This document shows positions 4,042 through 12,508 of a stretch of DNA of 64,000 bases, piece after piece; the stretch's first letter is position 1, and each line of letters starts with the position of its first letter. The stretch is taken from contig CACBOY010000005.1 in assembly GCA_902540995.1 (NCBI GenBank), positions 19,449 to 83,448 of the forward strand, read 5' to 3'. A program made the translations under genes and the position numbers. The stretch comes from an uncultured SAR86 cluster bacterium (GTDB lineage Bacteria; Pseudomonadota; Gammaproteobacteria; Magnimaribacterales; AG-339-G14). The notes under the pieces were generated by a model. That model saw only the letters and a program-made list of their open reading frames with translations, had not been told where the DNA came from and did not search any database.

Positions 4042-4902
4042 CTACTTACTTATCCAAGTTCCAACTCCTTTATCAGTCAAGAGTTCTATTAAAACGGAGT
4101 GGGGCACACGACCGTCGACGATGTGAGCATTTTTCACACCTTTTTCAAGACAATCAATTGCTCCAGTTAATTTAGGATACATGCCTCCTTTGATATTTTT
4201 TTTGTTTTTTAAAACTCTTTTTGCTTCTTTTAAACTCATTGTAGATATTTTTTTTCCTTCAAGATCTCTTACTCCCGAAATATCTGTGAGCAATATTATC
4301 TTTTCTGCTTTCAGAGATGCTGCAACAGCACAAGCTGCAAAATCTCCATTTATATTCATTGGCTCATCTTTAGAAGTCCACCCAATTGGAGAAATTACTG
4401 GAATTTTGCCAGCTCTTAGTGGTGTCATTATTTTTTTCTTATCAATGCTTTTTACCAAACCTACTTCACCAAGATTTTTTTTACTATCTTTTATTGCTTT
4501 GATTGGTGAATTCTTCTTTCCAACCAGCCTAATTGTCTTACCTCCCCAGAACTGAATAAGATCCGAAATATCTTTATTTATTTTGTTATCCAGAACCTTT
4601 TGAACAATTTTGATCATTTCTAAAGTGGTTTTTCTGATTCCGTCTTTGAATTCGAATTTAATATTATTTTTTATTAACTCAAAGTCTATTTGAGGACCTC
4701 CACCATGAATTAAAATTGGATGGATACCAACTGTCTTCATTAGAACTAAATCCCTTGCAAAGTTTTTTTGTAAAATTTTATTTTCCATAGCATTTCCACC
4801 ATATTTTATGACAACAACTTTGTTATTAAATTTTCTTATGTATGGGAGCGCTTCAGTTAGAACTTTTGAAATATTAATCGCGTTGGTTTCAGAGATACTC
4901 AT
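4042..4902 (-). CDS. argB: Acetylglutamate kinase
   Basis: EALPYI, IKYGGNAM, HGGGPQI, GGMYPK, DGRVPHS, GVGT. Confidence 0.96.
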   Translation of the reverse strand: MSISETNAINISKVLTEALPYIRKFNNKVVVIKYGGNAMENKILQKNFARDLVLMKTVGIHPILIHGGGPQIDFELIKNNIKFEFKDGIRKTTLEMIKIVQKVLDNKINKDISDLIQFWGGKTIRLVGKKNSPIKAIKDSKKNLGEVGLVKSIDKKKIMTPLRAGKIPVISPIGWTSKDEPMNINGDFAACAVAASLKAEKIILLTDISGVRDLEGKKISTMSLKEAKRVLKNKKNIKGGMYPKLTGAIDCLEKGVKNAHIVDGRVPHSVLIELLTDKGVGTWISK

Positions 4903-6275
4903 GAGAAGTCTAATTTCAAGTCAATTTCTATTTTAGACAATAACTCTTTGAAATAATTTTTTATTTCCAATAAGTCACTTTCTGTCTTGCCTTCAAATCG
5001 CAAAACAAGATTTGGCGAAGTATTCGAAGCTCTGATGAGCCCCCATGAATTTTCGTTTTCAAGTCTAATTCCATCTATGTCTATCAAAACATATCCAGAA
5101 GAATTTATTAGAGTTTTTATCTCATCAATAATTTTAAATTTTTCTTCTTCAAGCACTTTCAAATTTATCTCAGGCGTAGAAAAATGCTTTGGATAAGAGT
5201 TAAAGACTTCATGAGGCTTTATTTTTTTCTTTGATAAAACTTCTATTATTCTCAACGAAGAATAAATGGCATCATCGAACCCATACCAGTCATCATTGAA
5301 AAAGATGTGGCCACTCATTTCTCCACCTAACAAAGCGTTAGTTTCGATAATTTTTGATTTTATATATGAATGTCCAGTTCGTGACATGATTGGGGTTCCA
5401 TTAAAATTTTTTATTACTTTCTCTAGATTAGTTGAGCACTTAACATCAAAGACTATGCTACCTCCAGAATTTTTTCTTAATAAATCTTCAGCCAAAAGCA
5501 TCATATAAGCATCTGGAAAAATTATGTTCCCTTTGTTATCTATCAAACCGACTCTATCCCCATCACCATCAAGAGCAATACCCAAATCAGAATTTGTTTC
5601 CAAAACTTTTTTTTGTAAATCTTTTAAATTTTTTGGATTACTGGGATCTGGATGATGATTGGGAAAATTTCCATCTACTTCAGAATAAAGCTCAATAACT
5701 TCTAATCCAAGAAGTTTAAAAGCGTGGGGGGCAATCACTCCCCCAACTCCATTTCCGCAATCAAGACAAACTTTCATCTTAGAATTTATCTTTATCTTTT
5801 CTTGGAGTACTTTTAGGTAATCATCTTTTATATCAAGAGATGTTAATTTACCTGAGCCATCCATAAAAACCTCTTCTTCAATCATTGACTTTATTTTTTT
5901 TATTTTTTCACTTGTCATTGATCTCTTATTGATGACAATTTTTAAGCCGTTGTAGTTTTTGGGATTATGACTTCCAGTCAGCATCACTCCATCAGAGATA
6001 TTTGTCTTGAAAGTAGAAAAATAGAGAAGTGGAGTCGGAACCTCTCCGATGTCAACAACATTACACCCTGAAGACATAACTCCTTTATGAAATTGATTTA
6101 GAAGTCTTTGTCCAGAAATTCTTCCGTCTCTTGCAGTGAGAATAGATGACCTTCCTTCAGAAAGAATATATGATCCTATGGCTCTTCCAATCTGAAATAT
6201 TCCATCTTCCGTGAGCGTTTCATCTACTATTCCTCTGATATCGTAAGCCCGGAAAATTTCAGAATTAACTTTCAT
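4899..6275 (-). CDS. algC: Phosphomannomutase/phosphoglucomutase
   Basis: FRAYDIRG, TGSHNP, DGDGDR, GEMSGH, RASNT. Confidence 0.93.
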   Translation of the reverse strand: MKVNSEIFRAYDIRGIVDETLTEDGIFQIGRAIGSYILSEGRSSILTARDGRISGQRLLNQFHKGVMSSGCNVVDIGEVPTPLLYFSTFKTNISDGVMLTGSHNPKNYNGLKIVINKRSMTSEKIKKIKSMIEEEVFMDGSGKLTSLDIKDDYLKVLQEKIKINSKMKVCLDCGNGVGGVIAPHAFKLLGLEVIELYSEVDGNFPNHHPDPSNPKNLKDLQKKVLETNSDLGIALDGDGDRVGLIDNKGNIIFPDAYMMLLAEDLLRKNSGGSIVFDVKCSTNLEKVIKNFNGTPIMSRTGHSYIKSKIIETNALLGGEMSGHIFFNDDWYGFDDAIYSSLRIIEVLSKKKIKPHEVFNSYPKHFSTPEINLKVLEEEKFKIIDEIKTLINSSGYVLIDIDGIRLENENSWGLIRASNTSPNLVLRFEGKTESDLLEIKNYFKELLSKIEIDLKLDFS

Positions 6276-6312
6276 ATTAGTTTATCCACTTTATAATGAA
6301 TTTTTTTTTATT

Positions 6313-7236
6313 ATGACAACTTTGGCAGAAAAAAAAGGTTTTATCTGGTTTGACGGGAAGATTGTAAATTCAGAGGAAGCCAATGTACATGTTCTAACTC
6401 ATACCTTGCACTATGGCCTTGGAGTTTTTGAAGGAGTGAGAGCATACGAAACCCCAGAGGGTACAAAAATATTTCGACTGGACGATCATACTGAAAGGTT
6501 ATTTTCATCTGCTCTTGCAGTTGACTTAGAAATTCCTTATTCCAAAGACGAAATTAATCAGGCTCAAATAGAAATTGTTAAGCTAAATAATTTAAAAGAA
6601 GCTTACATTAGGCCTATGTGTTTTTATGGTTCAGGTAGTTTAGGTTTAAGAGCAGACGATTTAAAAGTTCATACTATAGTCGCAGCATGGGAGTGGCCAA
6701 GTTATATGGCTCCTGAGGTTTTTGAGAAAGGAATTAAGGTAAAGATATCTTCTTATAAAAGAGAAAGAGGTAATTTAGTTTCAAGATCTAAAGTAAATGG
6801 TAATTACGTTAAGTCCATGATGGCACTAAAAGAAGCTCTCAAAGAAGGCTATGACGAAGCTTTATTATTAGATACTGAAAATTTTATATCCGAAGGATCT
6901 GGAGAAAATTTATTTGTTATAAAAAATAATGAGCTTTTTACTCCAAATTTAGAGGCTTCTTTAGACGGTATAACAAGAAAGGCCATCATCTCTCTTGCTG
7001 AAGAAATAGGCATGAAAGTAAATGTATCTGACTTAACCGTAGAAGATATTTTATCTGCTGAGGAACTTTTTTTTACAGGAACAGCAGCTGAAGTTGTTCC
7101 AATTACTCAAGTCAACAATCAGAAAATTGGCTCCGGAGCGAGAGGCGAGGTAACTGAGATTCTTCAGAAAAATTATTTTGATCAAGTTAGAGGAAAAAGA
7201 TCCTCTTTCCCAGAATGGCACACACTGGTTAGCTAA
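6313..7236 (+). CDS. ilvE: Branched-chain amino acid aminotransferase
   Basis: HTLHYGLGVFEGVRAY, EGSGEN, LDGITR, GTAAEV. Confidence 0.96.
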   Translation: MTTLAEKKGFIWFDGKIVNSEEANVHVLTHTLHYGLGVFEGVRAYETPEGTKIFRLDDHTERLFSSALAVDLEIPYSKDEINQAQIEIVKLNNLKEAYIRPMCFYGSGSLGLRADDLKVHTIVAAWEWPSYMAPEVFEKGIKVKISSYKRERGNLVSRSKVNGNYVKSMMALKEALKEGYDEALLLDTENFISEGSGENLFVIKNNELFTPNLEASLDGITRKAIISLAEEIGMKVNVSDLTVEDILSAEELFFTGTAAEVVPITQVNNQKIGSGARGEVTEILQKNYFDQVRGKRSSFPEWHTLVS

Positions 7237-7245
7237 AGGACAAAC

Positions 7246-8493
7246 TTGAAAAAACTTAAGATTGCTTTCCTTAGCTATAGAAGCAAACCTTTTTCAGGCG
7301 GACAAGGTATTTACGTTAAATATCTTTCCAAAGCACTTAGTGATCTAGGCCATGAGATAGATGTTTTTTCCGGACCTCCTTACCCTGATTTAGACCCTGA
7401 AATTAAGTTAGTGAAAATTCCAAGTTTAGGTCTCTACGAAAAAAAAAGTAAGTTTTTTGACGTAAACCCGACTGAGTTACTAAATCCATTGAATTTATTT
7501 GAATGGTTGAGTGTGAATTCCGGAGGGTTTCCTGAGCCATACACCTTTGGTAAAAGAATAAAAAAATTTTTTAAGAAAAATCTAGATGAATATGATGTTA
7601 TTCACGATAACCAAAGTCTTGCGTATGAGTTACTTTTTTTTCAAAAGAAAAAGCCTTTAATCACCACAATTCATCATCCAATATCAAAGGACCTTAAATA
7701 TCAGTTACAAAGTACTGATGATTTTTTTTTAAAACTTCTTATGAGACGTTGGCACTCTTTTCTTGTAATGCAGAAATTTGTTGCGAAAAGACTTAAAAAA
7801 ATTGTGGTGCCTTCAAATTCATCTTTGGAAGATATAAAAAATGAATTTCAAGTTGATGAAAATAAAATGGAAAGAGTGATGAATGGTATAGACCTTAAAT
7901 TATTCTATCCAGATTTAAAAATAAAAAAAATTCCTTTTCGACTTGTAACTGTTGCTAGCGCAGATGTTCCTTTAAAAGGTTTGGATTATCTCTTAGAGGC
8001 TTTATCCGATCTTATAAAAGTTTATCCAGATATTTCATTATCAATTATTGGAGAACAGAGGAAAGGAGGTCACACCGAAAGATTAATAAAAAAACTTAAT
8101 TTACAAAATAGAGTCAACTTTTTTTCAAATTTAAACCAAGAGGATCTTAGATCTACTTATTGTGAAGCTGAACTAGCAGTTATTCCTTCTCTTTATGAAG
8201 GCTTCGGATTTGCAGCAATAGAGGCAATGGCTTGTGGAGTTCCTTTAATCTCAACTTCTGGAGGTGCTCTTCCAGAAGTAGTGAAAGAGGCAGGAATTAT
8301 AATTCCACCTAAAAAAACCAAAGAGATTTACAATGCAGTTGATTTTCTTTTGTCTTCCCCAGATAAAGCTAAAGAACTGTCTGAAAAAGCTTTAGAAAGA
8401 GCCAATTTAAAATTTTCTTGGGAGACTATAGCTAGGAAATTAGAAAAAGTTTATTTAAAGGAAATGGAAAATTTTAAACATGCAAACAATTAA
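7246..8493 (+). CDS. Glycosyltransferase family 4 (GT-B)
   Basis: TTG start with AAAGGA SD; SYRSKPFSGGQGIYV N-terminus; PSLYEGFGFAAIEAMACG (EX7E motif). Confidence 0.9.
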   Translation: MKKLKIAFLSYRSKPFSGGQGIYVKYLSKALSDLGHEIDVFSGPPYPDLDPEIKLVKIPSLGLYEKKSKFFDVNPTELLNPLNLFEWLSVNSGGFPEPYTFGKRIKKFFKKNLDEYDVIHDNQSLAYELLFFQKKKPLITTIHHPISKDLKYQLQSTDDFFLKLLMRRWHSFLVMQKFVAKRLKKIVVPSNSSLEDIKNEFQVDENKMERVMNGIDLKLFYPDLKIKKIPFRLVTVASADVPLKGLDYLLEALSDLIKVYPDISLSIIGEQRKGGHTERLIKKLNLQNRVNFFSNLNQEDLRSTYCEAELAVIPSLYEGFGFAAIEAMACGVPLISTSGGALPEVVKEAGIIIPPKKTKEIYNAVDFLLSSPDKAKELSEKALERANLKFSWETIARKLEKVYLKEMENFKHANN

Positions 8494-9184
8494 TTTAGAG
8501 TATTTAAATCCTGAAAAAGGTTCAAAAATTCTAGATTTGGGCTGCGGACAAGGGAGACATTGTTTCGGAGCTTACATGCATGCAGATGTAGACGTTTTTG
8601 GGTTTGATATGAGCCATGTAGACGTCCTTAAAGCTCAAAAAAACTTCGAGGAATTCGATGAATCGTCAAGCAACAAAAGTTGCTCTTTTGGTGTAACCGA
8701 CGGAAGAAAACTTCCCTTTAACAGCAATTCCTTTGATTACGTTATATGTTCTGAAGTTTTAGAGCACATTATTGATTTTGAATCAGTTATAGAAGAGATA
8801 GAAAGAGTTTTAAAACCAGGCGGAATATTTGCCGCAAGTGTTCCTAAATATCTTCCGGAGTGGATTTGCTGGAAATTAAGCAAGGCTTACCAAGAAATGC
8901 CAGGCGGGCATGTTAGAATTTTTAAATACAGGCATTTTAAAAAATCAATTGAGCAGAGGGGGTTTTCTTTTTTAAAGAGACATTGGAATCATGCGCTTCA
9001 CTCTCCTTATTGGTGGTTACAATGTATGTTTTGGGAAACCAAAGAAACATCTTGGATCATTAATAAATATCATGACTTTTTAGTTTGGGACATGATGAAA
9101 AAACCTTTTTTGACAAAGGTGCTAGAATTTCTTCTTCAACCAATAATAGCTAAAAGTGTCGTTGCATATTTCAAAAAAAAATAA
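8480..9184 (+). CDS. Class I SAM-dependent methyltransferase
   Basis: ILDLGCGQGRH, FDYVICSEVLEHI, RVLKPGG; overlaps the GT4 gene. Confidence 0.9.
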   Translation: MQTINLEYLNPEKGSKILDLGCGQGRHCFGAYMHADVDVFGFDMSHVDVLKAQKNFEEFDESSSNKSCSFGVTDGRKLPFNSNSFDYVICSEVLEHIIDFESVIEEIERVLKPGGIFAASVPKYLPEWICWKLSKAYQEMPGGHVRIFKYRHFKKSIEQRGFSFLKRHWNHALHSPYWWLQCMFWETKETSWIINKYHDFLVWDMMKKPFLTKVLEFLLQPIIAKSVVAYFKKK

Positions 9185-10181
9185 TCCAAAAAGTATTTTT
9201 GACAGAGCAATCTATTTAAATTTTGCTAAATATATTTTGTCTTGTCAGGATTCAGAAGGCGGTATTCGCTGGGAGCCAAATTCAAAACTGGATCCTTGGG
9301 ATCATATTGAATCTGCAATGGGATTGGATGTTCTTGGATTTGAAGCTGAATCTAAAAAAGCATATAACTGGTTGAGAGCTTATCAAGAAAGCGATGGATC
9401 ATGGTTATCACTATTTCATTCTTCTGAAAAAAATAATTTTAAAGAAACCAATTTCAGCTCTTATATAGCGGTAGGAATGTGGCATCACTTCAAAAACTTT
9501 AAGGATAAGAATTTTCTTGATGAATTTTGGCCAGTTTTGGATGCAGCCATTGAATTTACTCTCTCGGCACAATCAGAGCATGGTGATTTTTCTTGGGCAA
9601 AAGATAACAAGAATTGGTTAGACGATTCTCTCAAAACTGGATGTTCATCGATATACATGAGTCTTCTCTGTTACAAAAAAATTGCATATGAAATAGATAA
9701 GCGAGACAGAGTCTCAGATATTCAAATAAATAATTTAAGAGATTGTTTGAAAAATAAACCTTTTAGATTTGATAGAAATTGGGAGAGCAAAGAACGATAC
9801 AGCATGGATTGGTATTATCCAATTTTATCTGGTGCGTTCTCTAAATCGGACTCAATTGAATTAATTAGAGATAAATGGGACGAGTTTGTCGTTGAGGGTT
9901 TGGGATGTAAGTGCGTAAAGGAAGAGCCATGGGTAACTGCAGCTGAATCAGCAGAATTAGTTTTGGCTTTAACTAAAATTGGCTTAAAAAAAGAAGCAGA
10001 AAAAATACTTCAAGATACTTTTAATTTAATTGACGATGATGGTCTCTTATGGACAGGATACGTTTTTAAGGATAAAAAATACTGGCCAATCGAAAAACCC
10101 AGTTGGACAATGGGAGCGGCCATCCTAGCAGGAAATGCAATAAATAAATTTAGTCCTTCAAGTGATTTTTTTGAATTTTAA
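9156..10181 (+). CDS. Prenyltransferase/squalene-cyclase-like (alpha/alpha)-barrel protein of unknown function
   Basis: QW-like repeats QDSEGG, QESDGSW, QSEHGDF; Trp-rich motifs DPWDHIE, SMDWYYP, PWVT, WTGY, WP-EK-SWT. Start (GTG 9156 or TTG 9162) uncertain. Confidence 0.7.
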   Translation: MSLHISKKNNPKSIFDRAIYLNFAKYILSCQDSEGGIRWEPNSKLDPWDHIESAMGLDVLGFEAESKKAYNWLRAYQESDGSWLSLFHSSEKNNFKETNFSSYIAVGMWHHFKNFKDKNFLDEFWPVLDAAIEFTLSAQSEHGDFSWAKDNKNWLDDSLKTGCSSIYMSLLCYKKIAYEIDKRDRVSDIQINNLRDCLKNKPFRFDRNWESKERYSMDWYYPILSGAFSKSDSIELIRDKWDEFVVEGLGCKCVKEEPWVTAAESAELVLALTKIGLKKEAEKILQDTFNLIDDDGLLWTGYVFKDKKYWPIEKPSWTMGAAILAGNAINKFSPSSDFFEF

Positions 10182-10182
10182 A

Positions 10183-10776
10183 TCAAATCTTTTTTAAGAT
10201 CCCTAAAGTTTCATAAATACCAAGATCGACAAAATCTAATGATTTTTGGGCAGTAGAGTAAATTTCAAATGGCGGCCTACCTCCATCCTCCGGATTTGGA
10301 AAAACATCATGTATTATCAGCAATCCACCTGAACTTATTTTATCTTTCCAAGAATTATAATCACACATAGCAGCTTCGTAAGAATGGCCGCCATCTATAA
10401 AAAGGAGGCCAATTGATTCAGAAAATGTTTTAGACACTTCTTTGGAATTATTTATTACAGGAATTACATAATTAAATAAATTTGAAGATCTTATATTTTT
10501 TAAAAACTCAGGCAAAGTGTTGAACTTTTCTATTCTTTCGTCATAAAGATCTTCATCATGATATTCTTCTCCAAGCTGATGTTCTTCCGAACCCATATGA
10601 TGATCAACGGTATAAACAAGTCCATTTATTTTTTTGGCAACGTGAGCAAAATTTAAAGTTGATTTACCACAATAAGTTCCAATTTCTAAAACTGCCCCAA
10701 GGTGGTGGACATTTAGAAACAATTCTTGTAGTTTTTTAGCCTCTTTATCACTTAAAAAACCTTTTACGTCTAACAC
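10183..10776 (-). CDS. Class I SAM-dependent methyltransferase (Methyltransf_24-like)
   Basis: VLEIGTYCGKST, VDHHMGSEEH, LLFIDGGHSY, IHDVF; GTG start. Confidence 0.85.
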   Translation of the reverse strand: MLDVKGFLSDKEAKKLQELFLNVHHLGAVLEIGTYCGKSTLNFAHVAKKINGLVYTVDHHMGSEEHQLGEEYHDEDLYDERIEKFNTLPEFLKNIRSSNLFNYVIPVINNSKEVSKTFSESIGLLFIDGGHSYEAAMCDYNSWKDKISSGGLLIIHDVFPNPEDGGRPPFEIYSTAQKSLDFVDLGIYETLGILKKI

Positions 10777-10791
10777 TCAATAATAATATCA

Positions 10792-11712
10792 ATGGATAAA
10801 GCAAAAAGAAAAGAAGTTGAAATTTCTAAAGACAGTTTTTCTTACTTGCACGTAGCAGGTAAAAAACATGACAAAAATATATTTTTTTTTCATGCTACAG
10901 GTTTTAATGCCGAAACTTATATGCCTTTCTTTTTAAAACTTGGTGAACTTCTTGATAATCAATATTCGATTTTTGCCTTAGATCAAAGAGGTCATGGACT
11001 TTCTAAAGCATCTGCAATTCCATCAGAGCTAACCTCATGGCAAACCTATTTTGAAGATGGAAAAAATTTTACAAAGAAATTTTTATCATCAGAAAATATT
11101 TTAATGGGTCATTCAATGGGAGGAGTTGTAGCTGCAAGATTGGCCTATGATTTTGAAGACAAAATTGAAAAAAGTATTCTTATCGATCCTGTTCTTCAAC
11201 CACAAAGTTTAAAATTCCAAATCCCGTTCTTTAATATCTCTAATAAATCTTTTATCTCATTATTAAATTTTTTCAAAAAAAATCGTGCAAGCGAGATGAT
11301 CAATAATGCGAAAAAAAGAAGATCAGTTTTTTCTGATAAGGAAGAGATTTTTAAGCATTATCAAGGGAGAGGCGCCTTTACAAATTGGCCAGAAGAATCT
11401 CTAAAGGCTTATATAAATGGAGGTGTAATAGAAGAGGAAAATAAAATTAACTTAAGCTGTGCACCGGAGTGGGAGGCAAAAACTTTTGCAGTTTCATATG
11501 CCGCAAGAACAAATTTCATAAAAAAGTTAAGCAAACAAATATATGTTCCATTCGCATCTGAATCTTCAACACTCTCACCAGAAGTAAGAGATTTGCTTTC
11601 AGGAAACGCTAATTTTCTTTTTGAAAAAATAGATGGCAGCCACTTTTTTCCGATGGAAGAAAAGGATTTAATATGTAGCAAAATTTCTACTTTTATAAGG
11701 CAAAATGATTAA
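10792..11712 (+). CDS. Alpha/beta hydrolase (esterase/lipase-like)
   Basis: HATGF oxyanion region, DQRGHG, GHSMGG nucleophile elbow, SHFFPME catalytic His. Confidence 0.88.
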   Translation: MDKAKRKEVEISKDSFSYLHVAGKKHDKNIFFFHATGFNAETYMPFFLKLGELLDNQYSIFALDQRGHGLSKASAIPSELTSWQTYFEDGKNFTKKFLSSENILMGHSMGGVVAARLAYDFEDKIEKSILIDPVLQPQSLKFQIPFFNISNKSFISLLNFFKKNRASEMINNAKKRRSVFSDKEEIFKHYQGRGAFTNWPEESLKAYINGGVIEEENKINLSCAPEWEAKTFAVSYAARTNFIKKLSKQIYVPFASESSTLSPEVRDLLSGNANFLFEKIDGSHFFPMEEKDLICSKISTFIRQND

Positions 11713-12508
11713 AAGCACCACCATTGAAGACTTTAGAAATCATAAAAAGAAACAAACTAAATTTGCTTGTTTAACTGCATATGATGCATCTTTATCTACA
11801 TTAATGTCTAAAGCAGGGGTGGAGTTGATTTTAGTTGGAGACTCTTTGGGGATGGTTGTGCAAGGTCACGATTCTACAATACCCGTTTCTATGGAAGATC
11901 TTTTGTATCATCTTAGATGCGTTAAAAGAGGAAATTTAGGAAGTCACATAATGGCAGACATGCCATTTATGAGTTATGCAACAGAAAACCTTGCTTATGA
12001 CAATGCAATGCGCTTAATGCAAGCTGGAGCAAATTCTGTGAAAGTTGAAGGAGGCGAATGGATTCTAAAAACAACTGAACTTTTGTCTCAAAGAGGTATT
12101 CCAGTATGTGCCCATTTAGGTCTCACTCCTCAGTCAATCAATAGGCTGGGAGGATATTATGTGCAGGGCAGAGATCTTGAAGACAAAAATAGGATTTTGT
12201 CTGAGGCTAAGAAACTTGAAAATGCTGGAGCGGAAATTATTTTGTTGGAATGCGTACCTGCGAGTCTAGCAGAAGAGATATCGTCTAGTCTTAAAATTCC
12301 AACAATAGGAATTGGGGCAGGCTCAGCTACGGATGGTCAAATAATGGTTTGCTATGATGCAATTGGGGCTTACTCTTGGGATGATCAGCCTCAACCTAAA
12401 TTTGTAAAAAATTTCATGAATGAATCTAATTCAATTTTCGAAGCGTTTGAAAAATATGTTTTAGAAGTTAAAAGCTTGAAATTCCCATCTACTGATCATT
12501 CTTTTTAA
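11705..12508 (+). CDS. panB: 3-methyl-2-oxobutanoate hydroxymethyltransferase
   Basis: LTAYD, LVGDSLGMV, DMPFMSY, VKVEGG, HLGLTPQS, IGIGAG. Confidence 0.96.
   Translation: MIKSTTIEDFRNHKKKQTKFACLTAYDASLSTLMSKAGVELILVGDSLGMVVQGHDSTIPVSMEDLLYHLRCVKRGNLGSHIMADMPFMSYATENLAYDNAMRLMQAGANSVKVEGGEWILKTTELLSQRGIPVCAHLGLTPQSINRLGGYYVQGRDLEDKNRILSEAKKLENAGAEIILLECVPASLAEEISSSLKIPTIGIGAGSATDGQIMVCYDAIGAYSWDDQPQPKFVKNFMNESNSIFEAFEKYVLEVKSLKFPSTDHSF

Follow-up and report, generated by a model that had tools for sequence, protein, structure and literature searches.

A module of four genes at positions 7246-10776 of the 64-kb stretch of DNA analysed here (the window, which belongs to a contig of the SAR86 cluster whose own assembly, G000, is 79% complete) very probably consists of orthologues of the mycobacterial methylmannose polysaccharide (MMP) cluster, and is predicted to serve in making a polymethylated alpha-1,4-mannooligosaccharide in the cytoplasm and in recycling it with its own fragments as primers. 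The original prediction, made from the letters of the window, regarded the module as an undescribed system with no assigned function. This view has to be given up: the cluster maps to a characterised pathway, since it matches the mycobacterial ManT-pMeT3-MmpH-MeT1 cluster gene for gene. The pathway is known rather than undescribed because three of the four proteins match the solved structures 7QSG, 7QSJ and 6G7D, while the fourth is encoded in the position of pMeT3. The broader idea of a pathway that makes or recycles a methylated glycan is what orthology to the MMP cluster predicts, whereas none of the products that had been considered for it (a glycolipid, an osmolyte, a thiol or a lipid carrier) is indicated. 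Judged from the proteins that it encodes, the module adds a new and unexpected group of hosts to those of the known MMP cluster.

Gene layout and homology of the encoded proteins

The first gene of the module (7246-8493, + strand, TTG start) encodes a 415-aa protein of glycosyltransferase family 4 (GT4; GT-B fold), the homologue of ManT. It is followed on the same strand by the pMeT3 homologue (8480-9184), a class I S-adenosylmethionine (SAM) methyltransferase of 234 aa, and by the MmpH homologue (9156-10181, GTG start), an (alpha/alpha)6-barrel protein of 341 aa. The fourth gene, the MeT1 homologue (10183-10776), lies on the - strand and encodes a methyltransferase of the Methyltransf_24 type of 197 aa. 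The co-oriented neighbours overlap by 14 nt (ManT/MeT3) and 29 nt (MeT3/MmpH), and a single base (10182) separates the stop codons of the convergent MmpH and MeT1 genes. The layout that had been read from the sequence, with its overlaps and convergent fourth gene, has identical coordinates in the list of open reading frames (ORFs), and Pfam agrees with the domain calls of GT4, class I methyltransferase and Methyltransf_24. The MMP cluster encodes MeT1, the putative 3-O-methyltransferase pMeT3, ManT and MmpH, which in Mycolicibacterium (M.) hassiacum carry the tags MHAS_04405, MHAS_04403, MHAS_04402 and MHAS_04404, respectively (Maranha et al. 2023, Commun Biol 6:108, PMC9883506).

The barrel protein (9156-10181) matches PDB entry 7QSJ over residues 24-339 with E 3.6e-71, and no other chain does better than E 0.19. 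Its AlphaFold2 model, built from 40 aligned homologues (mean predicted local distance difference test score, pLDDT, 95.1), was compared with solved structures by Foldseek, and the top match was again 7QSJ, with a template modelling (TM) score of 0.91-0.92, a root-mean-square deviation of 1.4 A and 35% identity, followed by other six-hairpin glycosidases with TM scores of at most 0.76. The comparison thus decides for a six-hairpin glycosidase and against a terpene cyclase, the two folds between which the original prediction had wavered. Among NCBIfam models the protein has a weak match to 'oligosaccharide amylase' (TIGR01577, E 1.7e-8). 7QSJ is the MmpH of M. hassiacum, and 7QSG its ManT (PMC9883506).

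Residues of the window proteins were paired with those of MmpH and ManT by means of the printed alignments with 7QSJ and 7QSG and of the residues named in PMC9883506. All 11 MmpH site residues named there are kept in the window protein: the catalytic base E262 corresponds to E264, the acid candidates D47 and D50 to D46 and D49, and the subsite residues W49, N101, F102, T163, M215, Y219, E265 and W315 to W48, N99, F100, T161, M217, Y221, E267 and W317, respectively. Across 100 homologues D46, W48, M217, Y221, E264, E267 and W317 are invariant, D49 is replaced by N in 9, N99 by H in 8 (all of them in the order to which the window belongs), and F100 varies in 14. Within the 20 loci of the order that were compared (see below), H stands in place of N99 in 8 and in place of F100 in 6 (L019-L026, families f3 and f4); the f3 and f4 copies of MmpH are only 31-37% identical to that of the window, and therefore the details of their substrate may have drifted.

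The motifs quoted from the barrel protein by the original prediction are each present at one place, DPWDHIE at residue 46, SMDWYYP at 216, AESAE at 263 and WPIEKPSWT at 310, as are those quoted from the GT4 protein (SYRSKPFSGGQG at residue 10) and from the second methyltransferase (DHHMGSEE at residue 58 of the MeT1 homologue). The guess that the barrel motifs form an active site was a good one, as they hold D46, W48 and D49 (DPWDHIE), M217 and Y221 (SMDWYYP), E264 and E267 (AESAE) and W317 (SWT). Glycoside hydrolase (GH) families GH15 and GH125 of clan GH-L resemble MmpH in their (alpha/alpha)6 barrel and in having a conserved glutamate as the base, at an identity of only about 10-13%; unlike them, MmpH is endo-acting and is described as having no counterpart of the Arg/Asp pair of their -1 subsite (PMC9883506).

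The GT4 protein contains the Pfam domains PF00534 (E 2e-33) and PF13439 (E 1.1e-20) and, in the sequence search against solved structures, matches 7QSG (residues 4-406 of 415, E 2.8e-92) far ahead of the runner-up chain at 4.3e-28. Its residues G18, H143, K244, E318, G319, F320 and E326 are G15, H142, K240, E313, G314, F315 and E321 of ManT, and these seven columns are constant in all 98 homologues, with alignment gaps in at most two of them. K240, E313 and E321 are essential or important according to mutagenesis (PMC9883506). L291 of ManT is kept as L296, and L317 is replaced by F322.

The protein encoded at 8480-9184 has the methyltransferase domains PF13847 (E 5.8e-24) and PF08241 (E 3.9e-21), with the SAM-binding motif LDLGCGQG at residue 18. 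The search against solved structures returned no close homologue for it (best E 3.7e-11). Its gene lies between those of ManT and MmpH just as that of pMeT3 (MHAS_04403) lies between MHAS_04402 and MHAS_04404, and the protein is 41-43% identical to the product of the gene in the same position of Streptomyces loci. We regard it as a pMeT3 homologue, i.e., as a putative 3-O-methyltransferase of the added mannoses. Natural fusions of the two families, with the methyltransferase at the N-terminus and MmpH at the C-terminus (P0154, 590 aa, and P0180, 606 aa), support a functional link of both proteins. Two further members of the MmpH family, P0185 (519 aa) and P0209 (740 aa), are longer at the N-terminus by stretches to which no family was assigned.

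The protein encoded at 10183-10776 matches PDB entries 6G7D, 6G80 and 6H40 with E 8.6e-48 over residues 4-196 of 197; 6G7D is an entry that we take to be MeT1. The protein contains PF13578 (Methyltransf_24, E 1.3e-21), and in 88 aligned rows 31 of its positions are at least 97% conserved, including D58, H59 and H60, D128, G129 and H131, and H156 and D157.

The predicted pathway

If the four proteins act as their mycobacterial counterparts do, a nucleotide sugar would serve the ManT homologue as the donor for lengthening an oligomannoside primer, at least three to four units long, by alpha-(1->4)-linked mannose, the pMeT3 homologue would methylate the 3-OH of the added mannoses, and the MeT1 homologue would cap the chain by methylating the 1-OH at its free reducing end. 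The MmpH homologue, predicted to be an inverting endo-alpha-(1->4)-mannosidase with E264 as the base and D46 and D49 as candidates for the acid, would cut mature chains to defined fragments that prime new chains, so that old chains would seed new ones by the 'partially conservative replication' proposed for mycobacteria. The products of MmpH are 1-O-methylated tetra- and pentamannosides together with hepta- and octamannosides, and ManT extends such fragments (PMC9883506). The end product in the SAR86-cluster bacterium would be a short polymethylated mannan, which might plausibly serve a putative role in acyl-chain handling or in the cold adaptation of a marine oligotroph. The data themselves show homology, conserved residues, the fold, co-occurrence and vertical inheritance; that the enzymes have these activities in the bacterium, which sugar donor they use, that the polymer exists and what it does for the cell are what we infer from them.

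In none of the four proteins does the Kyte-Doolittle mean of any 19-residue stretch exceed 1.6, and none begins like a signal peptide, as would be expected of a pathway in the cytoplasm. The region 6300-11800 is matched by contigs of four seawater metatranscriptome runs from three studies on 22-28 of 30 bins, at 90-99% identity. These data are assembled contigs and speak only of the presence of copies from close relatives in RNA libraries, not of strand, level or operon structure, uncovered bins being uninformative, and since carry-over of DNA is possible they give only a weak hint of transcription. One metatranscriptome contig joins 8469 to 9168 with 21 letters on the shorter side, which is too weak to interpret.

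Distribution and inheritance of the cluster

The order was sampled by 41 genomes of 0.9-1.8 Mb from four families and 12 genera. MmpH was found in 38 of them, and in 28 of the 29 high-quality ones. Loss of the cluster was considered for the three misses, all of them relatives from the same genus as the window (G002, G009 and G014), and was rejected; the misses are assembly gaps, because ilvE is missing as well from G002 and G014 and lies at the contig end in G009. In another relative from the genus (G007, C1:23322-24330) the MmpH match is broken into two, the first part containing a TGA and a TAA, and may be a pseudogene or an assembly error.

Stretches of 13 kb from 20 of the 38 MmpH-bearing genomes, representing all 12 genera, were compared for gene order. 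All four genes are present in the order and orientation of the window in 19 of these 20 loci, the sole exception being L018, where no match to MeT1 was found within 6 kb, and ilvE abuts the ManT gene in 14.

Beyond the order, a profile scan of one genome per species detected a relative in at least 588 species. The best 80 of these were compared, with lineages taken from record titles: 42 belong to Gammaproteobacteria or unclassified Pseudomonadota (among the former Halieaceae, Cellvibrionaceae, Microbulbifer, Spongiibacteraceae/Zhongshania and Pseudomaricurvus), seven to Alphaproteobacteria (Parvibaculales, Rhodobiaceae) and 31 to Actinomycetota (30 of them Streptomyces). Four genes are present in 66 of these best 80 loci, three in 13 and two in one, several of the incomplete loci being short contigs. 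Since the same order recurs in 19 of 20 loci inside the order and in 66 of the best 80 loci elsewhere, the arrangement of the genes is not due to chance. The original prediction had pointed to a linked set of such genes in Actinobacteria and marine Gammaproteobacteria, and this set is real; it had also made much depend on whether the four genes co-occur across genomes, and they do.

In an evenly drawn sample of 400 genomes of the class, MmpH (E <= 1e-20) was found in at least eight, four of which are G000 and members of its order, and the others at least four of the remaining 396; the count is a floor, as one genome was left unscored and at most five candidates were scored per genome. The cluster is rare in the class and near-universal in the order of the window. 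At 50% identity the MmpH family as a whole falls into 134 clusters when E <= 1e-30 is required and into 624 when E <= 1e-10 suffices.

A tree of concatenated ManT, MeT3 and MmpH (74 rows, IQ-TREE quick mode, LG+G4, unrooted) was built without 23 of the 30 Streptomyces rows, which were thinned by hand, and without the short loci L030 and L032 and the ManT-less loci L029 and L078. A branch whose support is 100% in the Shimodaira-Hasegawa-like approximate likelihood ratio test (SH-aLRT) separates the 21 rows of the order from the rest, and families f1, f2 and f4 are each monophyletic. Actinomycetota form a clade of their own (100%), placed beside the alphaproteobacterial and the other gammaproteobacterial clades. 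As the tree is unrooted and many rows deviate in amino-acid composition, no direction of transfer can be inferred from it. The branch that sets the order apart fits vertical inheritance of the cluster, and the tree, taken together with the synteny of a phosphomannomutase gene and ilvE with the cluster (see below), fits its presence in the common ancestor of the order.

A conserved fifth gene was not found among 20 ORFs flanking nine loci outside the order (the nearest ones upstream and downstream, plus three more in the Streptomyces locus), where only a hexapeptide acyltransferase recurs, in two of the nine. This hexapeptide-repeat protein of 240 aa is encoded beside MeT1 in Microbulbifer agarilyticus (L059:7890-8612, + strand) and Pseudomaricurvus hydrocarbonicus (L060:7969-8691, + strand), where it might transfer acyl groups to the polymer, much as MMP is acetylated in Streptomyces griseus.

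Supply of the sugar donor and alternative explanations

Several observations weigh against the assignment of the module to MMP metabolism, and most of them concern the sugar donor. ManT of M. hassiacum uses GDP-mannose (PMC9883506). The canonical bifunctional ManC (TIGR01479) scores above cut-off in only 4 of the 41 genomes of the order, three further genomes having long sub-threshold matches, and the actinobacterial mannose-1-phosphate guanylyltransferase (NF052502) scores above cut-off in none of the 41; type I phosphomannose isomerase (PMI) was found in none of five genomes of the order. One genome that is 97% complete and carries all four cluster genes (G027) has no match either to ManC or to the PMI cupin domain. 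In the own assembly of the window, 79% complete, no ManC was found, and tblastn with both types of the PMI fusion described below gave no match. One of the proposed guanine contacts of ManT is not seen either, as the counterpart of D293 is Q298 (codon 8137-8139). In all 31 actinobacterial homologues (31 of 31) this column is D. In Proteobacteria it varies: T is found in 27 of 40 other Gammaproteobacteria/Pseudomonadota, the family of the window has F, H, Q or R, another family has K, and E and N are among the further variants. The recognition of guanine by L291 and D293 was itself proposed by analogy with V251 and D253 of PimA, from structure and not from mutagenesis (PMC9883506). The variability of the column raises the question of differing nucleotide recognition in Proteobacteria.

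The remaining points against the assignment concern the methyltransferases and the product. According to PMC9883506, the 3-O-methyltransferase activity of pMeT3 is still putative in every organism, mycobacteria included. The protein encoded at 10183-10776 is a putative reducing-end 1-O-methyltransferase of the MeT1 type, as judged from its overall match. Finally, the literature searched contains no report of a polymethylated mannan in any proteobacterium, and the support offered here is sequence-based.

A substitute for the canonical ManC may exist in the order. In 25 of the 41 genomes there is a frame of 184-281 aa whose match to ManC is confined to the PMI portion at the C-terminus. In four of the genomes (G010, G011, G003 and G014) the frame is seen as a full-length fusion of 252-269 aa, in which a cytidylyltransferase-like domain (PF01467) is joined to the PMI cupin (PF01050) and which adjoins a GalU-like gene; these fusions are located at L119:656-1444, L130:2565-3323, L131:3597-4352 and L132:2782-3558, all on the - strand. 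The PMI fusion is present in none of the seven genomes of the order that have a ManC-like gene, and the ManC gene of G013 has for a neighbour the RNase D-like gene which in G010 and G014 comes after the fusion. This complementary pattern suggests that the fusion substitutes for ManC, and we consider it a possible non-orthologous replacement. The closest relative of the bacterium studied here, G011, carries the fusion, and the matching site in the genome of the window falls just past the end of contig C5, which breaks off inside a gamma-glutamyltranspeptidase gene (C5:84258-85817, just past the end of the window). The flanking genes uvrC and pgsA are missing from the assembly too, so that the missing fusion reflects an assembly gap and not absence, and other genes missing from this assembly likewise call for caution. 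Four genomes that are at least 92% complete (G027, G036, G038 and G040) have neither ManC nor the PMI fusion, yet MmpH is present in them. The enzymes with a nucleotidyltransferase fold that were found in near-complete relatives are RfbA, GalU, a MurU-like protein, glucose-1-phosphate cytidylyltransferase and GlmU.

It is also conceivable that the same enzymes perform another chemistry, with ManT using a donor other than GDP-mannose (another nucleoside diphosphate mannose or a glucose donor) and a different polymethylated alpha-1,4-hexan being made. The scarcity of ManC in the order speaks for this, all the more as ManC is above cut-off in five of five other proteobacterial cluster carriers checked, and so do the replacement and variability of D293, the presence of GalU, the source of UDP-glucose, in five of five genomes examined and the histidines that take the place of N99 and F100 of MmpH in parts of the order. 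The residues that would hold the sugar do not follow this trend: at E318, G319 and F320, around the sugar-binding loop of ManT, and at nine of the 11 subsite positions of MmpH, the residue is kept by at least 19 of the 20 loci compared within the order. The PMI fusion, by its complementarity to ManC, also points to a route to activated mannose. We find a change of donor and polymer improbable, though it is the alternative that survives best. 

A more specific version of the MMP assignment joins several of these points. It holds that the cluster is a vertically inherited core trait of the order which functions without canonical ManC, that the fusion of PMI cupin and cytidylyltransferase-like domain, an undescribed bifunctional enzyme, supplies the activated mannose, and that the mannan serves as a cytoplasmic buffer of acyl chains or as an aid in the cold in cells without a type I fatty-acid synthase, a role unlike that proposed for mycobacteria. 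As a whole this combination can be put forward only tentatively, its being right in every part seeming rather doubtful to us.

Two other uses of such a module have to be weighed. In the first, the genes would decorate an envelope glycan (lipopolysaccharide core, O-antigen or capsule) with methylated sugars, which is what many cassettes of GT4 and methyltransferase genes do. For this speak the frequency of GT4 enzymes and sugar O-methyltransferases in envelope glycan loci, a weak, sub-threshold match (E 0.0042) between the second methyltransferase and the rhamnosyl O-methyltransferase/CmcI family, and a Halioglobus locus with the cluster between RfbA-like and HldE-like genes. No flippase, polymerase, lipid-carrier transferase or membrane segment was found in or beside the module, however, the neighbours of the cluster outside the order are not conserved, and three of the proteins favour the cytoplasmic MMP enzymes over any envelope enzyme by 40-60 orders of magnitude of E-value, which makes an envelope function very unlikely. 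In the second, a catabolic module, MmpH, being a hydrolase, would degrade imported methylated mannans, as the reliance of genome-streamlined marine heterotrophs on imported organic matter would allow, and the other genes would be unrelated neighbours. This is even harder to maintain for a protein that has no signal peptide, is translationally coupled through the overlaps to a glycosyltransferase and a methyltransferase and is fused to a methyltransferase in some organisms, in a set of four genes that travel together across phyla with no transporter linked to them.

That the barrel is a terpene cyclase or prenyltransferase toroid and the module makes a glycosylated, methylated isoprenoid can practically be dismissed: a sub-threshold Prenyltrans match, the only one in Pfam (E 0.0012, 18.8 bits vs cut-off 26.5), weak squalene cyclase matches (E 0.002-0.004), one QW-like motif (68-83) and database names of homologues such as 'prenyltransferase' are set against the lack of a DXDD motif, noted already by the original prediction and borne out by the absence of D.DD from the protein, against the conserved catalytic residues of a glycosidase, and against a Foldseek ranking headed by glycosidase folds, in which squalene-hopene cyclase comes only at rank 39 and drimenyl diphosphate synthase at rank 48.

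Relation to known systems and significance

The assignment to MMP metabolism thus being preferred, the cluster of the window can be compared with those already known. The mycobacterial MMP cluster (M. hassiacum MHAS_04402-04405; M. smegmatis MSMEG_6481-6484) consists of the same four families in the same order; the two are alike in that three proteins match the mycobacterial structures with E-values of 1e-48 to 1e-92, the residues of MmpH and ManT are kept and the proteins are soluble. They differ in that the MeT1 gene of the window is convergent with and abuts that of MmpH, that ManT D293 is replaced, and that the host is a small gammaproteobacterium and not an actinobacterium, from an order most of which has no canonical GDP-mannose pathway. 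The product of the mycobacterial cluster is a 3-O-methyl-alpha-1,4-mannan of about 11-14 units with a 1-O-methyl cap, whereas the system of the window is known from its genes alone. Streptomyces clusters, including that of the acetylated MMP (AMMP) of Streptomyces griseus, have ManT, MeT3 and MmpH in the same order, with proteins 35-43% identical to those of the window, and unlike the window they have MeT1 2.4-6 kb away with other genes between. The polymer of Streptomyces griseus is acetylated (PMC9883506), and no acetyltransferase adjoins the cluster of the window. The 6-O-methylglucose lipopolysaccharide (MGLP) of mycobacteria is built of another sugar, is acylated and is initiated on glucosylglycerate, without an MmpH-type hydrolase or MeT1; in the searches made, an MGLP enzyme was not the best match of any of the four proteins.

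The MMP cluster was reportedly first described by Ripoll-Rozada et al. in 2019 (as cited by Maranha et al. 2023). The 2023 survey of the cluster covered actinobacterial genomes only (PMC9883506). A literature search for SAR86 and methylmannose found nothing, and one for methylmannose and Gammaproteobacteria found nothing related, as judged by the listing of results; among the MMP papers since 2019 that were listed, none concerns Proteobacteria by title and beginning of the abstract, while the 2019 description or supplements may mention homologues. So far MMP has been regarded as peculiar to mycobacteria and a small number of other actinobacteria. New here are the residue-by-residue membership of the proteobacterial cluster, the contrast between order and class in its occurrence, and the gap in donor supply with a candidate for the substitute enzyme; the known mechanism of MMP metabolism is unchanged by the finding.

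The presence of the intact cluster as a near-universal, vertically inherited trait of genomes of 0.9-1.8 Mb shows that the pathway does not depend on the envelope or the way of life of mycobacteria, and its retention in very small genomes suggests that it earns its keep. The cluster is also present in cultured marine degraders of hydrocarbons and lipids and in Alphaproteobacteria, and such cultured Gram-negative carriers allow tests of the function of polymethylated polysaccharides, just as the putative 3-O-methyltransferase gains a diverse sequence family for its study. Methylated sugars occur in marine dissolved organic matter, and carriers of the cluster are a possible biological source of methylated hexoses in seawater.

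Neighbouring genes

The host is a marine gammaproteobacterium of about 1 Mb and 33% GC, and the region around the module has a GC content of 31-35% throughout, without a compositional break. Upstream of the cluster lies ilvE (6313-7236; NF005146, 402 bits vs cut-off 279), and downstream an alpha/beta hydrolase gene (10792-11712, + strand; PF12146, E 4.9e-17) stands between MeT1 and panB, with panB (TIGR00222, 319 bits) and panC (TIGR00018, 255 bits), both above cut-off, beyond it; the placement of the module between ilvE and hydrolase-panBC given by the original prediction agrees with these matches. Further upstream and on the opposite strand are argB and a phosphohexomutase gene of the phosphomannomutase/phosphoglucomutase (PMM/PGM) type (4899-6275, - strand), whose top NCBIfam match is PgmG with 455.6 bits, below the cut-off of 600.

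A homologue of the PMM/PGM-type mutase adjoins ilvE and the cluster in 16 of the 20 loci of the order. We see in this conserved neighbour a possible supplier of mannose-1-phosphate; being on the opposite strand, it is not co-transcribed with the cluster. The tie of the alpha/beta hydrolase to the module is uncertain. It was not detected beside the cluster in families f3 and f4, and none was seen beside MeT1 in the nine loci checked outside the order; within the order it adjoins MeT1 in 9 of the 20 loci, namely in all eight from the family of the window and in one from f2. At one locus outside the order (L064), an unrelated alpha/beta hydrolase is encoded upstream of ManT.

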